Source of the DNA: Candidatus Spongiisociaceae bacterium
GTDB lineage: Bacteria > Actinomycetota > Acidimicrobiia > Spongiisociales > Spongiisociaceae
Assembly: GCA_965219685.1 (NCBI GenBank)
Contig: CBDCOH010000002.1
Coordinates: 3,808,001-3,872,000 of the forward strand
Reading direction: 5' to 3'
DNA: 64,000 bases
Below are positions 1 to 14,893 of this stretch, one piece after another. Under the pieces are notes generated by a model that was not told where the DNA came from, searched no databases, and saw nothing but the letters and a program-made list of their open reading frames with translations. The position numbers and the translations under genes were made by a program. Each line of letters opens with the position of its first letter. The first letter of the stretch is position 1.

Positions 1-648
1 GCCTACCGGTACGTCCAGCACCGCGAGTATCTCGACGAACTGCTCCGGTTGCTGGAGGTGGGAGACAGGGTCACGCTGGTGGGACACGACTGGGGATCGG
101 TCCTGGCCTTCGACTGGGCTGTCCGGCATCCCGGCTCGGTCAGGGGCATCGCCTACATGGAGGCGATCGTCACCCCTGTGACCTGGGAGGACTGGCCGGA
201 GGCCGCCCGCCCGATCTTCCGGGCCATGCGCTCGGAAGCGGGTGAGCAGATCGTCCTCGAGAAGAACGTGTTCGTGGAGCGGATCCTCCCCGCCTCGATG
301 CTAAGCGACCTCACCCCCGCGGAGATGGACGAGTACCGCCGTCCCTTCCTGGAGCCCGGAGAGGATCGCCGGCCCATGCTCACCTGGCCGCGGCAGATCC
401 CTCTCGGAGGTCACCCGGCTGAGGTCCATGCGCTGGTCGCGGACTACTCGGCGAGGCTCGCCGGATGGGACGTGCCGAAGCTGTTCATCAACGCCGACCC
501 TGGTTCGATCCTGGTAGGCCGAGCTCGCGACGTATGTCGTGCCTGGCCCAACCAGACCGAGGTCACCGTCCCGGGAGTCCACTTCATCCAGGAGGATTCC
601 CCGGACCTCATCGGAACCGCGATCGCCGGTTGGTATAGCGCCTGCTAG
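1..648 (+). CDS. Haloalkane dehalogenase (alpha/beta hydrolase), 5'-truncated by the window edge
   Basis: Frame is open from base 1. GHDWGS nucleophile elbow, EKNVFVERILP, and C-terminal GVHFIQEDSP, as in DhaA/LinB-type enzymes. Confidence 0.9.
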   Translation, partial: AYRYVQHREYLDELLRLLEVGDRVTLVGHDWGSVLAFDWAVRHPGSVRGIAYMEAIVTPVTWEDWPEAARPIFRAMRSEAGEQIVLEKNVFVERILPASMLSDLTPAEMDEYRRPFLEPGEDRRPMLTWPRQIPLGGHPAEVHALVADYSARLAGWDVPKLFINADPGSILVGRARDVCRAWPNQTEVTVPGVHFIQEDSPDLIGTAIAGWYSAC

Positions 649-739: not shown

Positions 740-2230
740 ATGACTGAGAGCCGGCCCGGCCAGGCCCGTTTCGATCAAGCGCTGCACGCCGAGCGCCGGG
801 CTAGATTCGCCGGACTGATGGACGACGGCATAGCCCTGGTGCCGGCCGCCGCCGAGACGATCCGGAACAATGATGTGGAGCATCCGTTCCGCCAGGACTC
901 GGCCTTCCACTACCTGACCGGGTTCGACGAGCCGGACGCCGTGATGCTGCTCGACCCCTCCGCCGGTGACGAGCAGTACGTGCTGTTCGTCCGGCCAAGA
1001 GATCGGGAGCGGGAGATCTGGGATGGCCGCCGGGCCGGCGTGGACGGCGCCAGGGAGCATTTCGACGCCGACGCCTCCTACCCGGTGTCGGAACTCGAAG
1101 GGATCCTGCGCAAGAGGCTGCTGGGACGCCGGGTCGTCTACCTGCCGTACGGCCATGCCGAATTCCACAGGAGGGTCGTGACGATGGTTCGCTCGCTGGG
1201 AGGGCTGGCAAACCGGTACGGCAGGGTGGTACCCACCGAGGTCCGCGACGCCTCGCCTCTGCTGGGCGATCTCCGCCTGCACAAGACCGCGGAGGAGGTC
1301 GAGCGGCTGAGGCTCGCGTGCAAGATCACGGCCGAGGGCCACAGGGAGGCGATGCGCTTCACCCGGCCGGGCCGGTACGAGTACCAGGTTCAAGCCGCCC
1401 TGGAGTACGTCTTTCGGGCCAGGGGCGCTCGTCGCGACGGTTACCCGTCCATAGTGGCGTCGGGCGCCAACGCGTGCATCCTGCACTACACGGAGAACGA
1501 CCGCAGGATCGAGAAGGGGGATCTCGTACTGATCGACGCAGGGGCCGAGTACGGGTACTTCTCCTCGGACATCACCCGCTCCTTCCCGGCATCCGGGGTG
1601 TTCAGCGGTCCCCAGCGAGAGATCTACGAGGTTGTGTTGAGGGCTCAGCATGCCGCATTGGCGCTGGCGAGGCCGGGTTCCACCATGAAGCAGCTGCACG
1701 AGCAGGCGGTGGCGACCATCGCCGAGGGGTTGGTCGATCTCGGCCTGCTGCCCGGGACGGTCGAGGATGCGGTCCGGATGCACCACTACCGCGAGTACTT
1801 CATGCATGGGACCGGACACTGGTTGGGCATGGACGTACACGACGCCGGCGCCTACGGAGTCGATGGCGACCCCCGACCCCTCGTCCCGGGCATGGCGTTC
1901 ACGGTGGAGCCGGGAGTCTATGTGGACCCGGATAGGGCCGAGATCGAGTTGCCGATGCTCGAGTACGACCTCGACGAGTGGACCGAGCGGCGGATGCTGC
2001 TCGGCGCCGCGAAGGCCAAGGAGGTCGAGAAGCGGGAGCGGGAGGCTGCACCGACCGTGAAGCATCGCGTACCGGATGCCCTGCGCGGAATCGGCATCCG
2101 GATCGAGGACGACGTGGTGATCACCGAAGCCGGCCACGACAATCTGACCGCCGGCGTCCCGACCGATCCCGAGCAGGTCGAGGCTCTGTGCGCCGACGCG
2201 CCACGGGTGCCCTTCCTTGCAGCGCGGTAG
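740..2230 (+). CDS. pepP: Xaa-Pro aminopeptidase (M24B)
   Basis: N-terminal FRQDSAFHYLTGF; metal-ligand motifs DAGAE, SDITR, HGTGHWLGMDVHD, EPG and GIRIEDD. Confidence 0.93.
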   Translation: MTESRPGQARFDQALHAERRARFAGLMDDGIALVPAAAETIRNNDVEHPFRQDSAFHYLTGFDEPDAVMLLDPSAGDEQYVLFVRPRDREREIWDGRRAGVDGAREHFDADASYPVSELEGILRKRLLGRRVVYLPYGHAEFHRRVVTMVRSLGGLANRYGRVVPTEVRDASPLLGDLRLHKTAEEVERLRLACKITAEGHREAMRFTRPGRYEYQVQAALEYVFRARGARRDGYPSIVASGANACILHYTENDRRIEKGDLVLIDAGAEYGYFSSDITRSFPASGVFSGPQREIYEVVLRAQHAALALARPGSTMKQLHEQAVATIAEGLVDLGLLPGTVEDAVRMHHYREYFMHGTGHWLGMDVHDAGAYGVDGDPRPLVPGMAFTVEPGVYVDPDRAEIELPMLEYDLDEWTERRMLLGAAKAKEVEKREREAAPTVKHRVPDALRGIGIRIEDDVVITEAGHDNLTAGVPTDPEQVEALCADAPRVPFLAAR

Positions 2231-2271
2231 CGCTGGGGCCGTTTCCGGGCCGTGGCTCCGCCCAAGGGGGG

Positions 2272-2300
2272 TTGACAGTGTCACACCCGCGTCGCACACT
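2272..2300 (+). promoter_or_regulatory. Putative promoter TTGACA-N17-CACACT, overlapping a TGTCAC-N10-CANNNT (RecA-NDp/PafBC-like) motif
   Basis: Hexamers and spacing are conserved in the second copy (12911-12939, minus strand) while the spacer has diverged. Confidence 0.6.
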
Positions 2301-2304
2301 GGAG

Positions 2305-2462
2305 GCAACCGCAAGCACCATCGGTCCCTTCCGGCGTCGATCGGACCGTGGCGGGATCACATCGTCGAATCCGACCCCGCGAGGGCACAGGGTGTCGCGT
2401 TTCGAGCCTCGGAGGTGGCGGTTGGGGGAGGGCCCACAGGGGATTCTCTCTGGGGCGTTTTT
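2305..2462 (+). ncRNA. Candidate ~160-nt structured small RNA, copy 1
   Basis: Homologous to 12745-12905 (minus). 5' ACCGC-AAG-CACC can pair with 3' GGTG-GCGGT. It has internal hairpins and ends in a hairpin + T-tract. Confidence 0.55.
2432..2462 (+). terminator. Intrinsic terminator-like hairpin
   Basis: GCCC(A)CAGGGGA-TTC-TCTCTG-GGGC followed by GTTTTT. Confidence 0.55.
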
Positions 2463-2572
2463 CGCGTTCTCGGACAGCAGGCCCCGGAGGGCCGGGTCGG
2501 CCGACACCGGAGTATCCGGACCGCGCTACCGAGACCGGAAACTGCCTTGATCCAGCGTAAGCCACCGGTGAC

Positions 2573-2607: not shown

Positions 2608-3075
2608 TCAGATCGGAGGGAGCCGATCGATCCACGGGCGGGCCCGCTCGAGTTGAGCAGCCAGCCGGAACAGGAGGGCTTCGTCGGCATAGCGGGTGGT
2701 GAACTGCACACCGATAGGCAGCCCGCCGTCCCAGTGGAGTGGTAGGGACATGGACGGCTGGCCGGTGACGTTCCACAGGGCGGTGTTGGGTACCGCCCGG
2801 AAAGCCGGCTCACCCTGTCTGGCGATGGCACCCAGAGCCTTGTGGCGTCCCCCGAGCCGGATGAGCGCCTTGGCCAACCGCTTGTTGATAGGGGGGTAGA
2901 GGGTGCCGGTCTTCCAGCGCCGGCGGGCGATCGTGGGCTCCACGAACACGTCGTAGGTGTCGAAGAATGGAGCGGTGGACCGCCCTACGTTGCGGATGTA
3001 CTCGAGGGCGGTGATGAAGTCGCCGGCGGTCAGGCGCCGGCCGACCAGGCCGATCAGCCACGACGCAGCCTGCGG
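2608..3075 (-). pseudogene. Amidase C-terminal remnant
   Basis: Reads ...FFDTYDVFVEPT...NVTGQPSMSLPLHWDGGLPIGVQF...EALLFRLAAQLERARPW, an amidase C-terminus. There is an in-frame stop upstream and no catalytic N-terminal half. Confidence 0.8.
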
Positions 3076-3226
3076 GCAGATTCATGGTGGGTGCCGATGG
3101 GGGAAGGAGGGTCAGCAGTTGGGCGCAACGCTAGGCGGATGACCGCCCGATCCGATCCCGGGCGAAGGCTAACATTCGACTCGGCATCCGACTACCTGTG
3201 GATCCACGGTCGCTCTGAGGGAGATT

Positions 3227-11422: not shown

Positions 11423-12505
11423 TCAGCCGTCCCGCGCCGCGTACCACGGCTCTATCACTCCGGTGACGATCTCGCGGCGCTCGTCCGCGGGCAGGAAGGC
11501 TCCTTCGATCGCGTTGACGGTCAGCTGTCGCAGTTCGTCCCATGACCACCCGAAGGCGGAGCGGCAGCGGTCCAGTTCTCTGGTGAGGAAGGTGCCGCTC
11601 ATCAGCCGGTTGTCCGTGTTCACCGTGACCCGGAAGCCGAGATCGAGGAGGCGTCCGACCGGATGGGTGGAGATTGAGCCGACCGCCCCGATATGCACGT
11701 TCGAGGTCGGGCACTGCTCGAGAGGCATCGCCTCGTCGCGTACGTAACGGGCGAGAGGCCCCAGGCTCCCGTCCTGCTCCATGTCGTCGACGATGCGGAT
11801 TCCGTGGCCGATACGGTCGGCCCCGCATGTATGGACGGCATCCCTGATGGATGCGAGACCGCAGGCCTCGCCGGCGTGGATAGTGAAGGGAAGCCGTGCC
11901 CGGCGCAGCAGTCGGAAGGCGGCGAGGTGCTGCGATGGCGGGTATCCGGCTTCCGCTCCGGCGATGTCGAAACCGACCACTCCCTGATCCCGGTTCCGGA
12001 TAGCAGCTCCGGCGGCATCCAGGCTCCGGGCACCGGTGCGCATGGCCGTCACGAGCGTGCCGACGCGGATGCCTCGTCCCTCACTGCCGTCGCGGAAGCC
12101 GGCAGTAACGGCCTCTACGGCCTGGTCAAGCGAGAGCCCTCCGGCTAGGTGCAGTTCCGGAGCGAAGCGCACTTCGGCGTAGACCACACCGTCATCCGCG
12201 AGATCCTCGGCGCACTCGGCCGCCACCCGGTACAGGGCTCGACCGGTCTGCATGACGCCGAAGGTGTGACGGAACATCTCCAGGTAAAGCTCGAGACTGC
12301 GCCGCCGGGCCCCGGCGCGCAGGTGGGCCGCCAGTGCCTCGGGGTCGTGGGTCGGCAGGTCCGTGTAGCCGGTCGTCTCGGCGAGTTCCACGATCGTGGA
12401 CGGGCGCAGCCCGCCGTCGAGATGGTCGTGGAGCAGCACCTTGGGCGCCCCGCGAAGGCTTGCCGCGGTGGGTAGCGTTCCTCGGCCGGTATCCGGAGCG
12501 GCCAC
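11423..12505 (-). CDS. add: Adenosine deaminase
   Basis: PKVLLHDHLDGGLR, HAGE, RIGHG, CPTSN and NTDNRLMS. GTG 12505 lies 7 nt after TAGGCT (-10), suggesting a leaderless start. Confidence 0.93.
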   Translation of the reverse strand: MAAPDTGRGTLPTAASLRGAPKVLLHDHLDGGLRPSTIVELAETTGYTDLPTHDPEALAAHLRAGARRRSLELYLEMFRHTFGVMQTGRALYRVAAECAEDLADDGVVYAEVRFAPELHLAGGLSLDQAVEAVTAGFRDGSEGRGIRVGTLVTAMRTGARSLDAAGAAIRNRDQGVVGFDIAGAEAGYPPSQHLAAFRLLRRARLPFTIHAGEACGLASIRDAVHTCGADRIGHGIRIVDDMEQDGSLGPLARYVRDEAMPLEQCPTSNVHIGAVGSISTHPVGRLLDLGFRVTVNTDNRLMSGTFLTRELDRCRSAFGWSWDELRQLTVNAIEGAFLPADERREIVTGVIEPWYAARDG

Positions 12506-12744
12506 CTGGCGTAGCCTAACCGCGGCCGTGCACGGGCTTCGTCGAGCGATGCCACGGAGTCTTCGGCGGATGGGCTTCGAGCTGAACCCGGAGAGAGGCA
12601 GATCCACTGGCGGGTCGACCTGGCCGGAGAATTGTCGGCCTCGGGCTGGGAACCCTTGGCAGCTCAGCGAACCGCGCAGGGACCCGACCAGCGACTGTTC
12701 GGGAACGTCCACCGCGCCACCAAGGGGCCACACCCACCGAGAAC

Positions 12745-12905
12745 GCGAAAAACGGCCGACCGAAGCCCTGTCGAGGGCCCACCCCCACCGCCACCTCCCC
12801 GGCTTCGAGACGCGTCTCCCTCTCCCCTGAGAGGTGCGACGGCGACAACATGATCCCGGCCATCCGTTCGACGTCGGAAACGAACGGGCGGTGCTTGCGG
12901 CTACC
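12745..12905 (-). ncRNA. Candidate ~160-nt structured small RNA, copy 2
   Basis: Shares blocks CCGCAAGCACC, TTCCGRCGTCGAWCGGA, CGGGATCA, CGCGTYTCGA, GGAGGTGGCGGT and CGTTTTTCGCGTTCTCGG with copy 1. Confidence 0.55.
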
Positions 12906-12910
12906 CACAA

Positions 12911-12939
12911 AGTGTGCAGAAGGCCTGTGACACCGTCAA
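12911..12939 (-). promoter_or_regulatory. Putative promoter TTGACG-N17-CACACT for small RNA copy 2
   Basis: Same architecture as 2272-2300. Confidence 0.55.
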
Positions 12940-12983
12940 CCCCCTTGCGGGTCCCGGAACGCAACGGAGCAGAACTAGCGTCG

Positions 12984-13853
12984 CTAGGACGCAGGGGGCG
13001 GAACGCGGGCCGCGAAATGCTCGGCGATCTCACGGCGGGTGGCTACCCACACGCCGCCTCTGGTCCGTACATGTTCGAGGAAGCGGTGGAGCGCCCCGAT
13101 CCTTCCCGGGCGGCCTATCACGCGTAGGTGCAGACCCAATGACATCATCCGTGGTCGATCGGTCCCTTCCGCATGCAGGCACTCGAAGGTGTCGATGGCG
13201 TAGTCCAGCCACTGGTGAGGCGTATAGGAGGGTTCCGCCCACATCTTCATGTCGTTGGTGTCGAGCGCGTAGGGCATGATCACCAGAGGCCGTCCGTCGA
13301 CCAACTCCCAGAACGGTTCGTCCCTCGAGTAGTCGTCCATGTGGTACAGGAACCCCTCCTCGGCAAGGATCCGCCGGGTGTTGTCGCTGACCAGGTACCG
13401 GGACAGGTGGCCTAAGGGGCGGTTGCCCGTTGTGCGGGTGATCGAGCGCACCGCGCTGCGGATGAACTCCCGCTCCTGCGACTCATCCATGCGGAACTGG
13501 TGAGACCAGCGGTAGCCGTGGCTGGCTGCTTCGTCACCGCGTCCCGCGATGAACCGGGCGATCTCCGGCGCCCGCTCCAAGGCCAGGGCGGCGGCCGTCC
13601 AGGTGGCTGGGACTGCGTGCTCGTCCAGCGCCTGGGCCACCCGCCGGAACCCTTCCTGCAATCCGTAGCGGTAGTTGCTCTCGTTGGCCCGGTTGCGAAT
13701 CGGTCTCTTGAGCACGATGCCCATCTCGTCAACCGGTTCCGGGCCCCTGTCGCCGTCCAGCACCGACATCTCCGCGCCCTCTTCCACGTTGACGACCACA
13801 GAGAGCGCCAGCGAAGCTCCTTGCGGCCAGCGGTAGGTGGCATGGGCACTCAT
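12984..13853 (-). CDS. Polysaccharide deacetylase family protein (PuuE allantoinase-like)
   Basis: LSVVVNVEEGAE, ESNYRYG, ASHGYRW, PYALDTNDMK, and MMSLGLHLRVIGRPGR. Confidence 0.85.
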   Translation of the reverse strand: MSAHATYRWPQGASLALSVVVNVEEGAEMSVLDGDRGPEPVDEMGIVLKRPIRNRANESNYRYGLQEGFRRVAQALDEHAVPATWTAAALALERAPEIARFIAGRGDEAASHGYRWSHQFRMDESQEREFIRSAVRSITRTTGNRPLGHLSRYLVSDNTRRILAEEGFLYHMDDYSRDEPFWELVDGRPLVIMPYALDTNDMKMWAEPSYTPHQWLDYAIDTFECLHAEGTDRPRMMSLGLHLRVIGRPGRIGALHRFLEHVRTRGGVWVATRREIAEHFAARVPPPAS

Positions 13854-14665: not shown

Positions 14666-14858
14666 TCCGGCGGAAGCCTTCCCGGATCGGGTCGAGGATC
14701 GATGCACGCGGTGCCCGGTTCCGGTCGACTCCGGAACCGACCGACAGTGCTAACGGGCTTGGGCTACCCCTTGTTCCTACCGGCTGGGTCCTTGTCGCGG
14801 TCGGGCCTCGTGTCCGTCGCCGGTGCGCAGGACTGCCAGGTTCTCGCCTTCGAGCCAT

Positions 14859-14893
14859 CAACTACCAACTATAAACTATCAACTACCAACTAT
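14859..14893. repeat. Heptamer tandem repeat (CAACTAY) x5
   Basis: Just after the stop codon of the minus-strand amidase. Confidence 0.85.

Follow-up and report, generated by a model that had tools for sequence, protein, structure and literature searches.

What is the intergenic stretch at 2263-2485 of the plus strand, and why does a diverged version of it stand at 12724-12947 on the minus strand of the same window, by which we mean the whole 64,000 nucleotides of DNA analyzed here? The two are 80% identical over 274 aligned columns, and the initial annotation took them for a unit in two copies made of a promoter, a structured small RNA and a terminator. The features from which that description was built can be read directly in the letters. 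The promoter-like TTGAC(A/G)-N17-CACACT is present in both, as TTGACA (2272-2277), a 17-nt spacer and CACACT (2295-2300) in copy 1 (2272-2300, plus strand), and as TTGACG (12939-12934), a spacer of the same length and CACACT (12916-12911) in copy 2 (12911-12939, minus strand); the copy 1 spacer includes a near-invariant TGTCACA. Both also have the closing helix CCGC-AAG-CACC / GGTG-GCGG, an inner hairpin whose letters differ (CGGTCC/GGACCG versus CCGTTCG/CGAACGG) with the pairing kept, and the common tail CGTTTTTCGCGTTCTCGG.

Under the second of two covariance models (R2, described below), the RNA body and terminator of copy 1 score 139.7 bits at 2300-2466 (plus strand) and the corresponding region of copy 2 scores 117.5 bits at 12744-12910 (minus strand); these are the only two copies in the 64-kb window. 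In copy 1 the model places helix P1 at 2309-2319 with 2414-2421, P2 at 2322-2327 with 2343-2348, and P3 at about 2365-2405; the conserved junction GGGATCA lies at 2353-2359 and the conserved TTGGGGGAGGGCCC at 2422-2435, all on the plus strand. The 3′ end of copy 1 (2437-2473, plus strand), delimited by a terminator scan and by the information profile of the family's 3′ boundary, consists of a terminator-like hairpin at 2437-2452, a T-run at 2458-2462, then CGCG, and then TTCTCGG, which the profile marks as the last bases of family conservation. In copy 2 the T-run is at 12752-12748, CGCG at 12747-12744, and the final TTCTCGG, again from the sequence and the profile, at 12737-12743 (all minus strand).

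The neighbors, assigned by Pfam, are ordinary genes. Upstream of copy 1 is an aminopeptidase P gene (740-2227, plus strand), and downstream of it and convergent on it is an amidase-like C-terminal piece (2608-2946, minus strand), so that the earlier statement that no same-strand gene directly follows this copy stands. Copy 2 is flanked on one side by a polysaccharide-deacetylase-type gene (12984-13850, minus strand) and on the other, downstream and on its own strand, by an adenosine deaminase gene (11423-12499, minus strand). The amidase-like ORF aligns with no more than the final 40 or so positions of the Amidase profile and, at 26 bits, falls just short of the cut-off; it may be a gene remnant, and the stretch is kept in relatives. 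In the intergenic DNA the heptamer CAACTAN is also repeated in tandem, in short arrays richer in A+T (for example, CAACTATCAACTACCAACTATCAACTAGG), at 2573-2610 and at about 14840-14880 in the window, and arrays with at least 3 units are found at 39 sites in G000:C2, most of them far from the RNA elements.

The count of two holds for the window only. In the genome from which the window comes (G000; 4.42 Mb, 65% G+C) there are about 48 full copies: BLAST with copy 1 gives 41 matches, iterated nhmmer gives 34, then 50, then 50 hits, of which 48 count as full length by covering more than 150 of 210 profile positions, and the covariance-model search gives 45. The element is about 220-250 bp long and non-coding; the lengths of indels in its loops are not divisible by three, and the copies have no ORF in common. 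A small-ORF reading was rejected, the frame past the Shine-Dalgarno-like motif being disrupted by indels between copies. Paralogues are about 70-80% identical to each other, the similarity of most of them ends within about 10 nt of the core, and they fall into a subfamily A with the signature CCGYAAR-CACC ... GGTG-GCGG and a subfamily B with CCA-AR-CACC ... GGTG-GTGG. About 10 subfamily-A copies have additional common repeat modules on one or both sides, about 60-110 nt upstream and 75-88 nt downstream of the core (among them G000 C2:2092249, 3240733, 1243176, 1208505, 3675417, 1969984, 2003473, 1342301, and 1920173); the intergenic DNA thus carries composite repeats of several module types. 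That the unit could not be assigned to a family agrees with Rfam 15, which has no match in the 64-kb window at gathering scores and, at E up to 10, gives two chance-level hits (13.4 and 13.8 bits, where the cut-offs are 46 and 45).

Placement bears directly on what such a unit could do. With the elements masked and genes called by a crude GC3-based caller, all 48 copies are intergenic, 18 in convergent, 7 in divergent, and 23 in co-directional gaps, and within the co-directional gaps the 2 orientations are represented 10 to 13. The genome as a whole has 554 convergent, 554 divergent, and 2191 co-directional gaps, with 26.5% of intergenic bases in the convergent class. There is at most a mild excess of copies in convergent gaps, and there is no orientation rule. 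By the same crude caller, the gene downstream is on the opposite strand in 31 of the 48 copies and on the same strand in 17. These numbers uphold, for the family as a whole, the earlier view of an independent unit as opposed to a riboswitch: an opposite-strand gene beyond most copies, together with the lack of any orientation rule, effectively rules out a leader or riboswitch, and the lack of a rule likewise rules out service to the neighbors as terminator or promoter. Moreover, an all-against-all BLASTP of the 192 flanking ORFs found no recurrent neighbor protein family, the largest cluster having 4 members.

Does the family share an RNA fold? Because RNAalifold gave no more than pieces of structure from the raw MAFFT alignment, helices were set manually and carried through 2 covariance models. 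The first, R1, was built on 27 subfamily-A copies, and 85 copies were realigned to it and their pairs counted. Single-sequence folds put the 7-bp basal helix of P3 in another register than R1, and that register was replaced to give R2, to which 96 copies from at least 20 genomes were realigned. In the R2 alignment 88.1% of cells are paired, against 80.3 ± 0.4% in column shuffles, with 0 of 500 shuffles reaching the observed value; these counts come from alignments that had been fitted to the models, and the relatedness of copies makes the shuffle test look stronger than it is. Sliding the partners by 1-3 columns lowers pairing in the same alignment to 28-52%, and changes on both sides are seen in 24 of its 28 pairs. 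P1 is 95-97% paired, with one position reading G-C in 52 copies, A-U in 15, and G-U in 9, and P2 is 93% paired, with double (compensatory) changes in all 8 of its pairs. For P3 the figures are 77% in the basal helix, where one pair is A-U in 27, G-C in 27, and G-U in 26, and 79% in the apical helix; support for P3 is moderate, and this helix is less certain than P1 and P2.

The compensated stems noted at the outset from 2 copies are thus borne out by covariation across the family, and among 20 orthologous pairs from G000 and its relative G007, all 7 changes in P1 keep the pairing. In the same ortholog test, 8 changes in P2 keep and 9 break pairing, most of the breaks falling in the outermost pair and in rows of subfamily B with a poor fit to R1, and P3 in its old R1 register did poorly. 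Single-sequence folding of the copies is no more stable than that of shuffles (z of +0.98 and −0.47). Strand is addressed by the wobble pairs: G·U cells number 263 and A·C cells 73, an excess that places the selected fold on the strand reading from promoter-like site to T-run.

As modeled, the RNA is a three-way junction of P1, P2, and P3. The first helix is interrupted by an AAR bulge, with the Shine-Dalgarno-like GGAGGUGG as its 3′ strand. In the large loop of P2 there is a palindrome of 6-8 nt (about 2330-2340 in copy 1) whose letters vary while the palindromy is kept (GGUACC, GGCGCC, GACGUC); it would suit loop-loop dimerization or an alternative pairing with the P2 stem. Conservation reaches at least 90% in the junction GGGAUCA, in an ACGCG of an internal loop, and in the 3′ UGGGGGNGGGCCC, and the 5′ leader ahead of P1 is only about 8-10 nt long. 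In that leader (about 2304-2313), many copies have the 9-mer GTAGCCGTA, also found in the 3′ region of 16S rRNA (G000:C2 near 374854); there is no wider similarity, and the match is probably chance.

At the 5′ end, the relaxed pattern TTGNNN-16..18-NANNNT is found in 36 of the 48 copies, mostly with a 17-nt spacer, and 12 have lost the −35; a strict sigma-70 scan called no promoter in copy 1 or copy 2. At the 3′ end, 44 of 48 have a T-run of at least 4 after the GGGCCC hairpin region, the 3′ hairpins do not exceed shuffles in stability (−12.3 versus −11.3 kcal/mol), and the terminator scan called a hairpin in copy 1 only (2437-2452) and none in copy 2. Judged from its letters, the TTGACA-17-CACACT-like site would be a promoter. 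A search of sequencing records for a 10-kb stretch listed no run of RNA type that contains it.

The family is restricted to one lineage. Of 41 related genomes, BLAST detects the element in 17, every one a member of family f1, and with R1 it is found in 15 of 18 other f1 genomes (g1, 4/4; g7, 8/9; g4, 3/3; g3, 0/2) and in none of 132 genomes from 11 other families of the order. A search with R2 of 150 other genomes of the class gave nothing convincing, only 2 single borderline hits of about 26.5 bits. An exact-motif scan of named public genome records returned 55 stretches, nearly all in 4 metagenome-assembled genomes; a hit in a contig titled Pseudomonadota was rejected as a weak partial match. 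Full copies in the relatives range from 40 (G007) to 58 (G002). In the fragmented assembly G001, many copies are 10-60 nt away from the end of a contig (C252:32-242, C120:58-268, and C19:47-248 among others), which suggests near-identical recent copies breaking the assembly.

Within this lineage the occupied sites change. A 16-kb query finds both window copies at orthologous places in G007, about 90% identical, and both are absent from the orthologous gaps of G002; copy 1 is absent from G001, G005, and G004 as well. The gap between the aminopeptidase gene and its convergent neighbor is 78 bp in G002 and 391 bp in the window, and that between the deaminase and deacetylase genes is 35 bp against 541 bp. 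For the 30 best G007 copies, 22 are at sites where G000 also has one. For the 30 best copies of G002, a genome about 80% identical to G000, 17 have both flanks in a single G000 neighborhood, and only 2 of those 17 sites, both of subfamily B, are occupied in G000, leaving 15 empty. Site sharing of 22/30 in one relative and 2/17 in the other means that copies come and go as species of one genus diverge. Of a 606-bp difference between G007 and G000 only a part is repeat DNA, and it looks like a deletion or replacement; the G002 and G000 intergenic regions are not alignable, so that base-level junctions cannot be read.

Copies that stayed in place tell a different story from their surroundings. 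Over the 20 G000/G007 pairs, with gaps counted as mismatches and coding and non-coding DNA separated by the crude GC3-based caller, the RNA part is identical at 3089 of 3445 positions (89.7%) and the promoter at 762 of 900 (84.7%), against 76.8% (1078/1404) for the upstream and 75.2% (1505/2001) for the downstream non-coding flank; flanking coding DNA stands at 88.5% (6100/6895). Orthologous copies are therefore conserved on a par with coding DNA, unlike their non-coding flanks at about 76%. Gene conversion does not explain this, because paralogues are far less alike than orthologues. Conservation like that of protein genes suggests that the RNA has a job.

How, then, did a conserved unit come to be dispersed? 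The initial annotation had set selection on RNA structure against transposition, and with about 48 dispersed copies, turnover of sites, and terminal inverted repeats in one subfamily, this proves a false choice. [quoted passage not shown] On the 3′ side, the information profile ends family conservation 7 nt past CGCG. On the 5′ side, 9 of 17 subfamily-B copies have the motif (G)GTCGCGAAAAC at a fixed position 17-20 nt upstream of the core. This motif is the inverse of the 3′ end GTTTTTCGCGACC, giving terminal inverted repeats of about 12 bp, GGTCGCGAAAAC ... GTTTTTCGCGACC. Copies 1 and 2 and most of subfamily A have only a degenerate 5′ motif, without a clear 5′ inverted repeat. In copy 1 it is the G-rich stretch immediately 5′ of the −35 (2260-2271, plus strand), which the family alignment, flank anchoring, and comparison with the ends of ISL3-family insertion sequences identify as a degenerate version of an ISL3-like inverted-repeat motif, into which other family members continue at this point. 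As for target-site duplications, perfect 8-mer flank matches occur in 4 of 46 copies, against 4.5% in mismatched-copy controls, which is no signal.

The likeness to ISL3 can be followed in the genome itself, which has insertion sequences of that family, one with a 397-aa transposase (PF01610, E 1e-60) and an 8-bp duplication, CAGATGTC. The ends of its ISL3 copies read ...GTTTTCGCGAAGCCTC; in relatives the ends are GGCT(C)TTCGCG(A/T)4 and then a run of G, and they resemble GAGGCTTCGCAACGAGGGGG, which lies directly upstream of the −35 in some subfamily-A copies. An end motif of about 12-14 nt is common to ISL3 and the element, (G)GCTTCGCGAAAAC in the insertion sequence compared with GGTCGCGAAAAC / GTTTTTCGCGACC in subfamily B, and the 7 nt past CGCG at which the element's conservation stops equals the distance to the terminus of the insertion sequence. 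Beyond the ends the two differ. The element lacks a transposase, 8-bp duplications are not detectable around it, its RNA body of about 125 nt has no counterpart in the ISL3 copies examined, no ISL3 locus examined carries that body, and an autonomous parent was not found. ISL3 is in 20 of 29 f1 genomes, was not seen in 4 RNA-positive drafts, and is present in 2 RNA-negative genomes. The link is only suggestive, because the left ends of ISL3, aligned with gaps to the elements, score no better than shuffles, no duplications are seen, the junctions cannot be read to the base, the presence of one does not track that of the other, and only 2 of 30 ISL3 loci have an element copy nearby.

A further mobile element touches the same motif. 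An IS110-family element (PF01548 plus PF02371, the ORF being split in the copy examined) is present in G000 in 3 copies at the same insertion point, CACG^TTTTCGCG (C2:1190919-1192418, 3057201-3058724, and 3093119-3094648, all outside the window). Its hosts are 2 ISL3 ends and one RNA-element terminator whose copy is intact in G007, and it looks as if this IS110-family element targets the end motif site-specifically.

Our preferred reading, which we consider probable without regarding the matter as settled, is a MITE-like dispersed element, now retained at its sites by selection, with a self-contained small-RNA gene inside it. The strongest competitor, in our judgment unlikely though well worth taking seriously, is a purely selfish MITE with no RNA function, in which promoter, fold, and T-run would be leftovers of the leader and ends of a parent insertion sequence; the signals would be kept only in lineages that are still transposing, or would be needed at the DNA level for transposition. 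Such an element would readily account for inverted repeats that resemble ISL3 ends, for the strong turnover between species, for a placement about as intergenic bases predict (18/48 convergent versus 26.5%), and for the loss of the −35 in a quarter of the copies (12/48). It does not account for copies that, once in place, match coding DNA in conservation when their non-coding flanks do not, and selection among transposing lineages does not explain conservation in place either. Nor can homogenizing gene conversion be invoked, with paralogues only 70-80% identical. Finally, the 263 G·U against 73 A·C cells point to a fold on one strand at the level of RNA, and ISL3 transposases work on double-stranded ends.

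A different function for the RNA would be that of a guide or scaffold working with a mobile-element or defense protein encoded elsewhere in the genome, as a host-retained, transposon-borne class comparable to stand-alone omega RNAs or bridge RNAs, with the P2 palindromic loop, or GGGAUCA and UGGGGGNGGGCCC, as sites of protein binding or dimerization. Omega RNAs, in stand-alone copies, and bridge RNAs were first noticed as multi-copy structured repeats, and HEARO and omega RNAs, like the element here, form many dispersed, covarying, structured copies of about 150-250 nt limited to certain lineages. The high copy number, the conserved scaffold with variable loops and its own promoter-like site, the confinement to one lineage, the conservation in place, and the insertion of an IS110-family element exactly at the T-run/CGCG motif would all fit. 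However, no protein gene recurs next to the copies, and the comparison of flanking ORFs brought out no neighbor of IscB or TnpB type; neither HEARO nor any other Rfam family matches; the variable 3′ segment can pair with itself and precedes a T-run, which is terminator-like and not guide-like; and the 5′ leader before P1, at some 8-10 nt, leaves no obvious guide segment. We consider this improbable. Least probable, and close to refuted, is a cis-regulatory leader (a riboswitch or attenuator) for the downstream gene, adenosine deaminase in the case of copy 2, since the position of copy 2 upstream of that same-strand gene, and the resemblance of promoter-like site, fold, buried Shine-Dalgarno-like motif, and terminator to an expression platform, are set against a same-strand downstream gene in only 17 of 48 copies, neighbor genes of no common family, an orthologous deaminase gene in G002 without the element, and no Rfam riboswitch match.

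How would a MITE-like element with a retained small-RNA gene work? What is observed is how many copies there are, that they lie between genes, that their sites turn over, that the helices covary, on which strand the fold lies, and that conservation in place is at coding level; from the sequence we infer that the promoter fires and the RNA is made. Each copy would use a sigma-70-like promoter (TTGaCc, 17 nt, cAtAcT) to drive a complete small-RNA gene, with a product of about 165 nt folded as the three-way junction and a hairpin plus U-run as the stop; the T-run and CGCG would serve at the same time as the right end of the element. In the folded RNA, the closing helix P1 with its AAR bulge would bury the Shine-Dalgarno-like GGAGGUG, P2 would present a hairpin with a palindromic apical loop, and P3 would form a long hairpin. 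The invariant GGGAUCA, ACGCG, and UGGGGGNGGGCCC, predicted to be unpaired, may allow the RNA to act in trans on a common partner, either protein or RNA, and it would be on this account that the host now keeps the copies. Mobilization of the element may be due to the ISL3 transposase.

Among known repeats, the Correia elements of Neisseria are small, dispersed, intergenic, and stably folded, and such repeats are usually dismissed as junk or as accidental promoters and terminators. RUP of Streptococcus pneumoniae is alike in being a small dispersed intergenic repeat with a stable fold, and SPRITE and BOX of the same species are so described in the review PMC10969869. Some of these four bear terminator-like or promoter-like signals, and they chiefly alter the transcription or stability of neighboring genes; the element here is instead a closed unit, with promoter-like and terminator-like signals co-directional around a fold and no orientation bias with respect to its neighbors. 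The closest parallel is in Coxiella burnetii, where, according to the same review (primary paper, PMC5896051), QMITE1 and QMITE2 give the small RNAs CbsR3, CbsR13, and CbsR16; like our family, these are non-autonomous, multi-copy intergenic elements that yield small RNAs, here presumptively. The Coxiella RNAs were detected, as reported there, whereas the element described here is known from its DNA. On the other hand, this family has a conserved promoter-like site, a covarying three-way junction, a U-run, and coding-like conservation of orthologs. Small RNAs from bacterial MITEs are thus known in Coxiella (PMC10969869), and what is unusual here is the conserved gene architecture across copies, the covariation, and the ortholog conservation. 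In the literature on ISL3, MITEs, and small RNAs and on repeats in connection with Acidimicrobiia and sponges, supplements aside, we found no description of this element.

The host lineage is little studied and uncultured, of the Acidimicrobiia type, and known only from metagenome-assembled genomes. For the more utilitarian goal of annotating it, the covariance models already allow 40-60 loci per genome to be masked or labeled. If the RNA is made, this would be among the largest small-RNA gene families in any bacterial genome, and it would present a clear case of a mobile element that spread an RNA gene which was then retained site by site.
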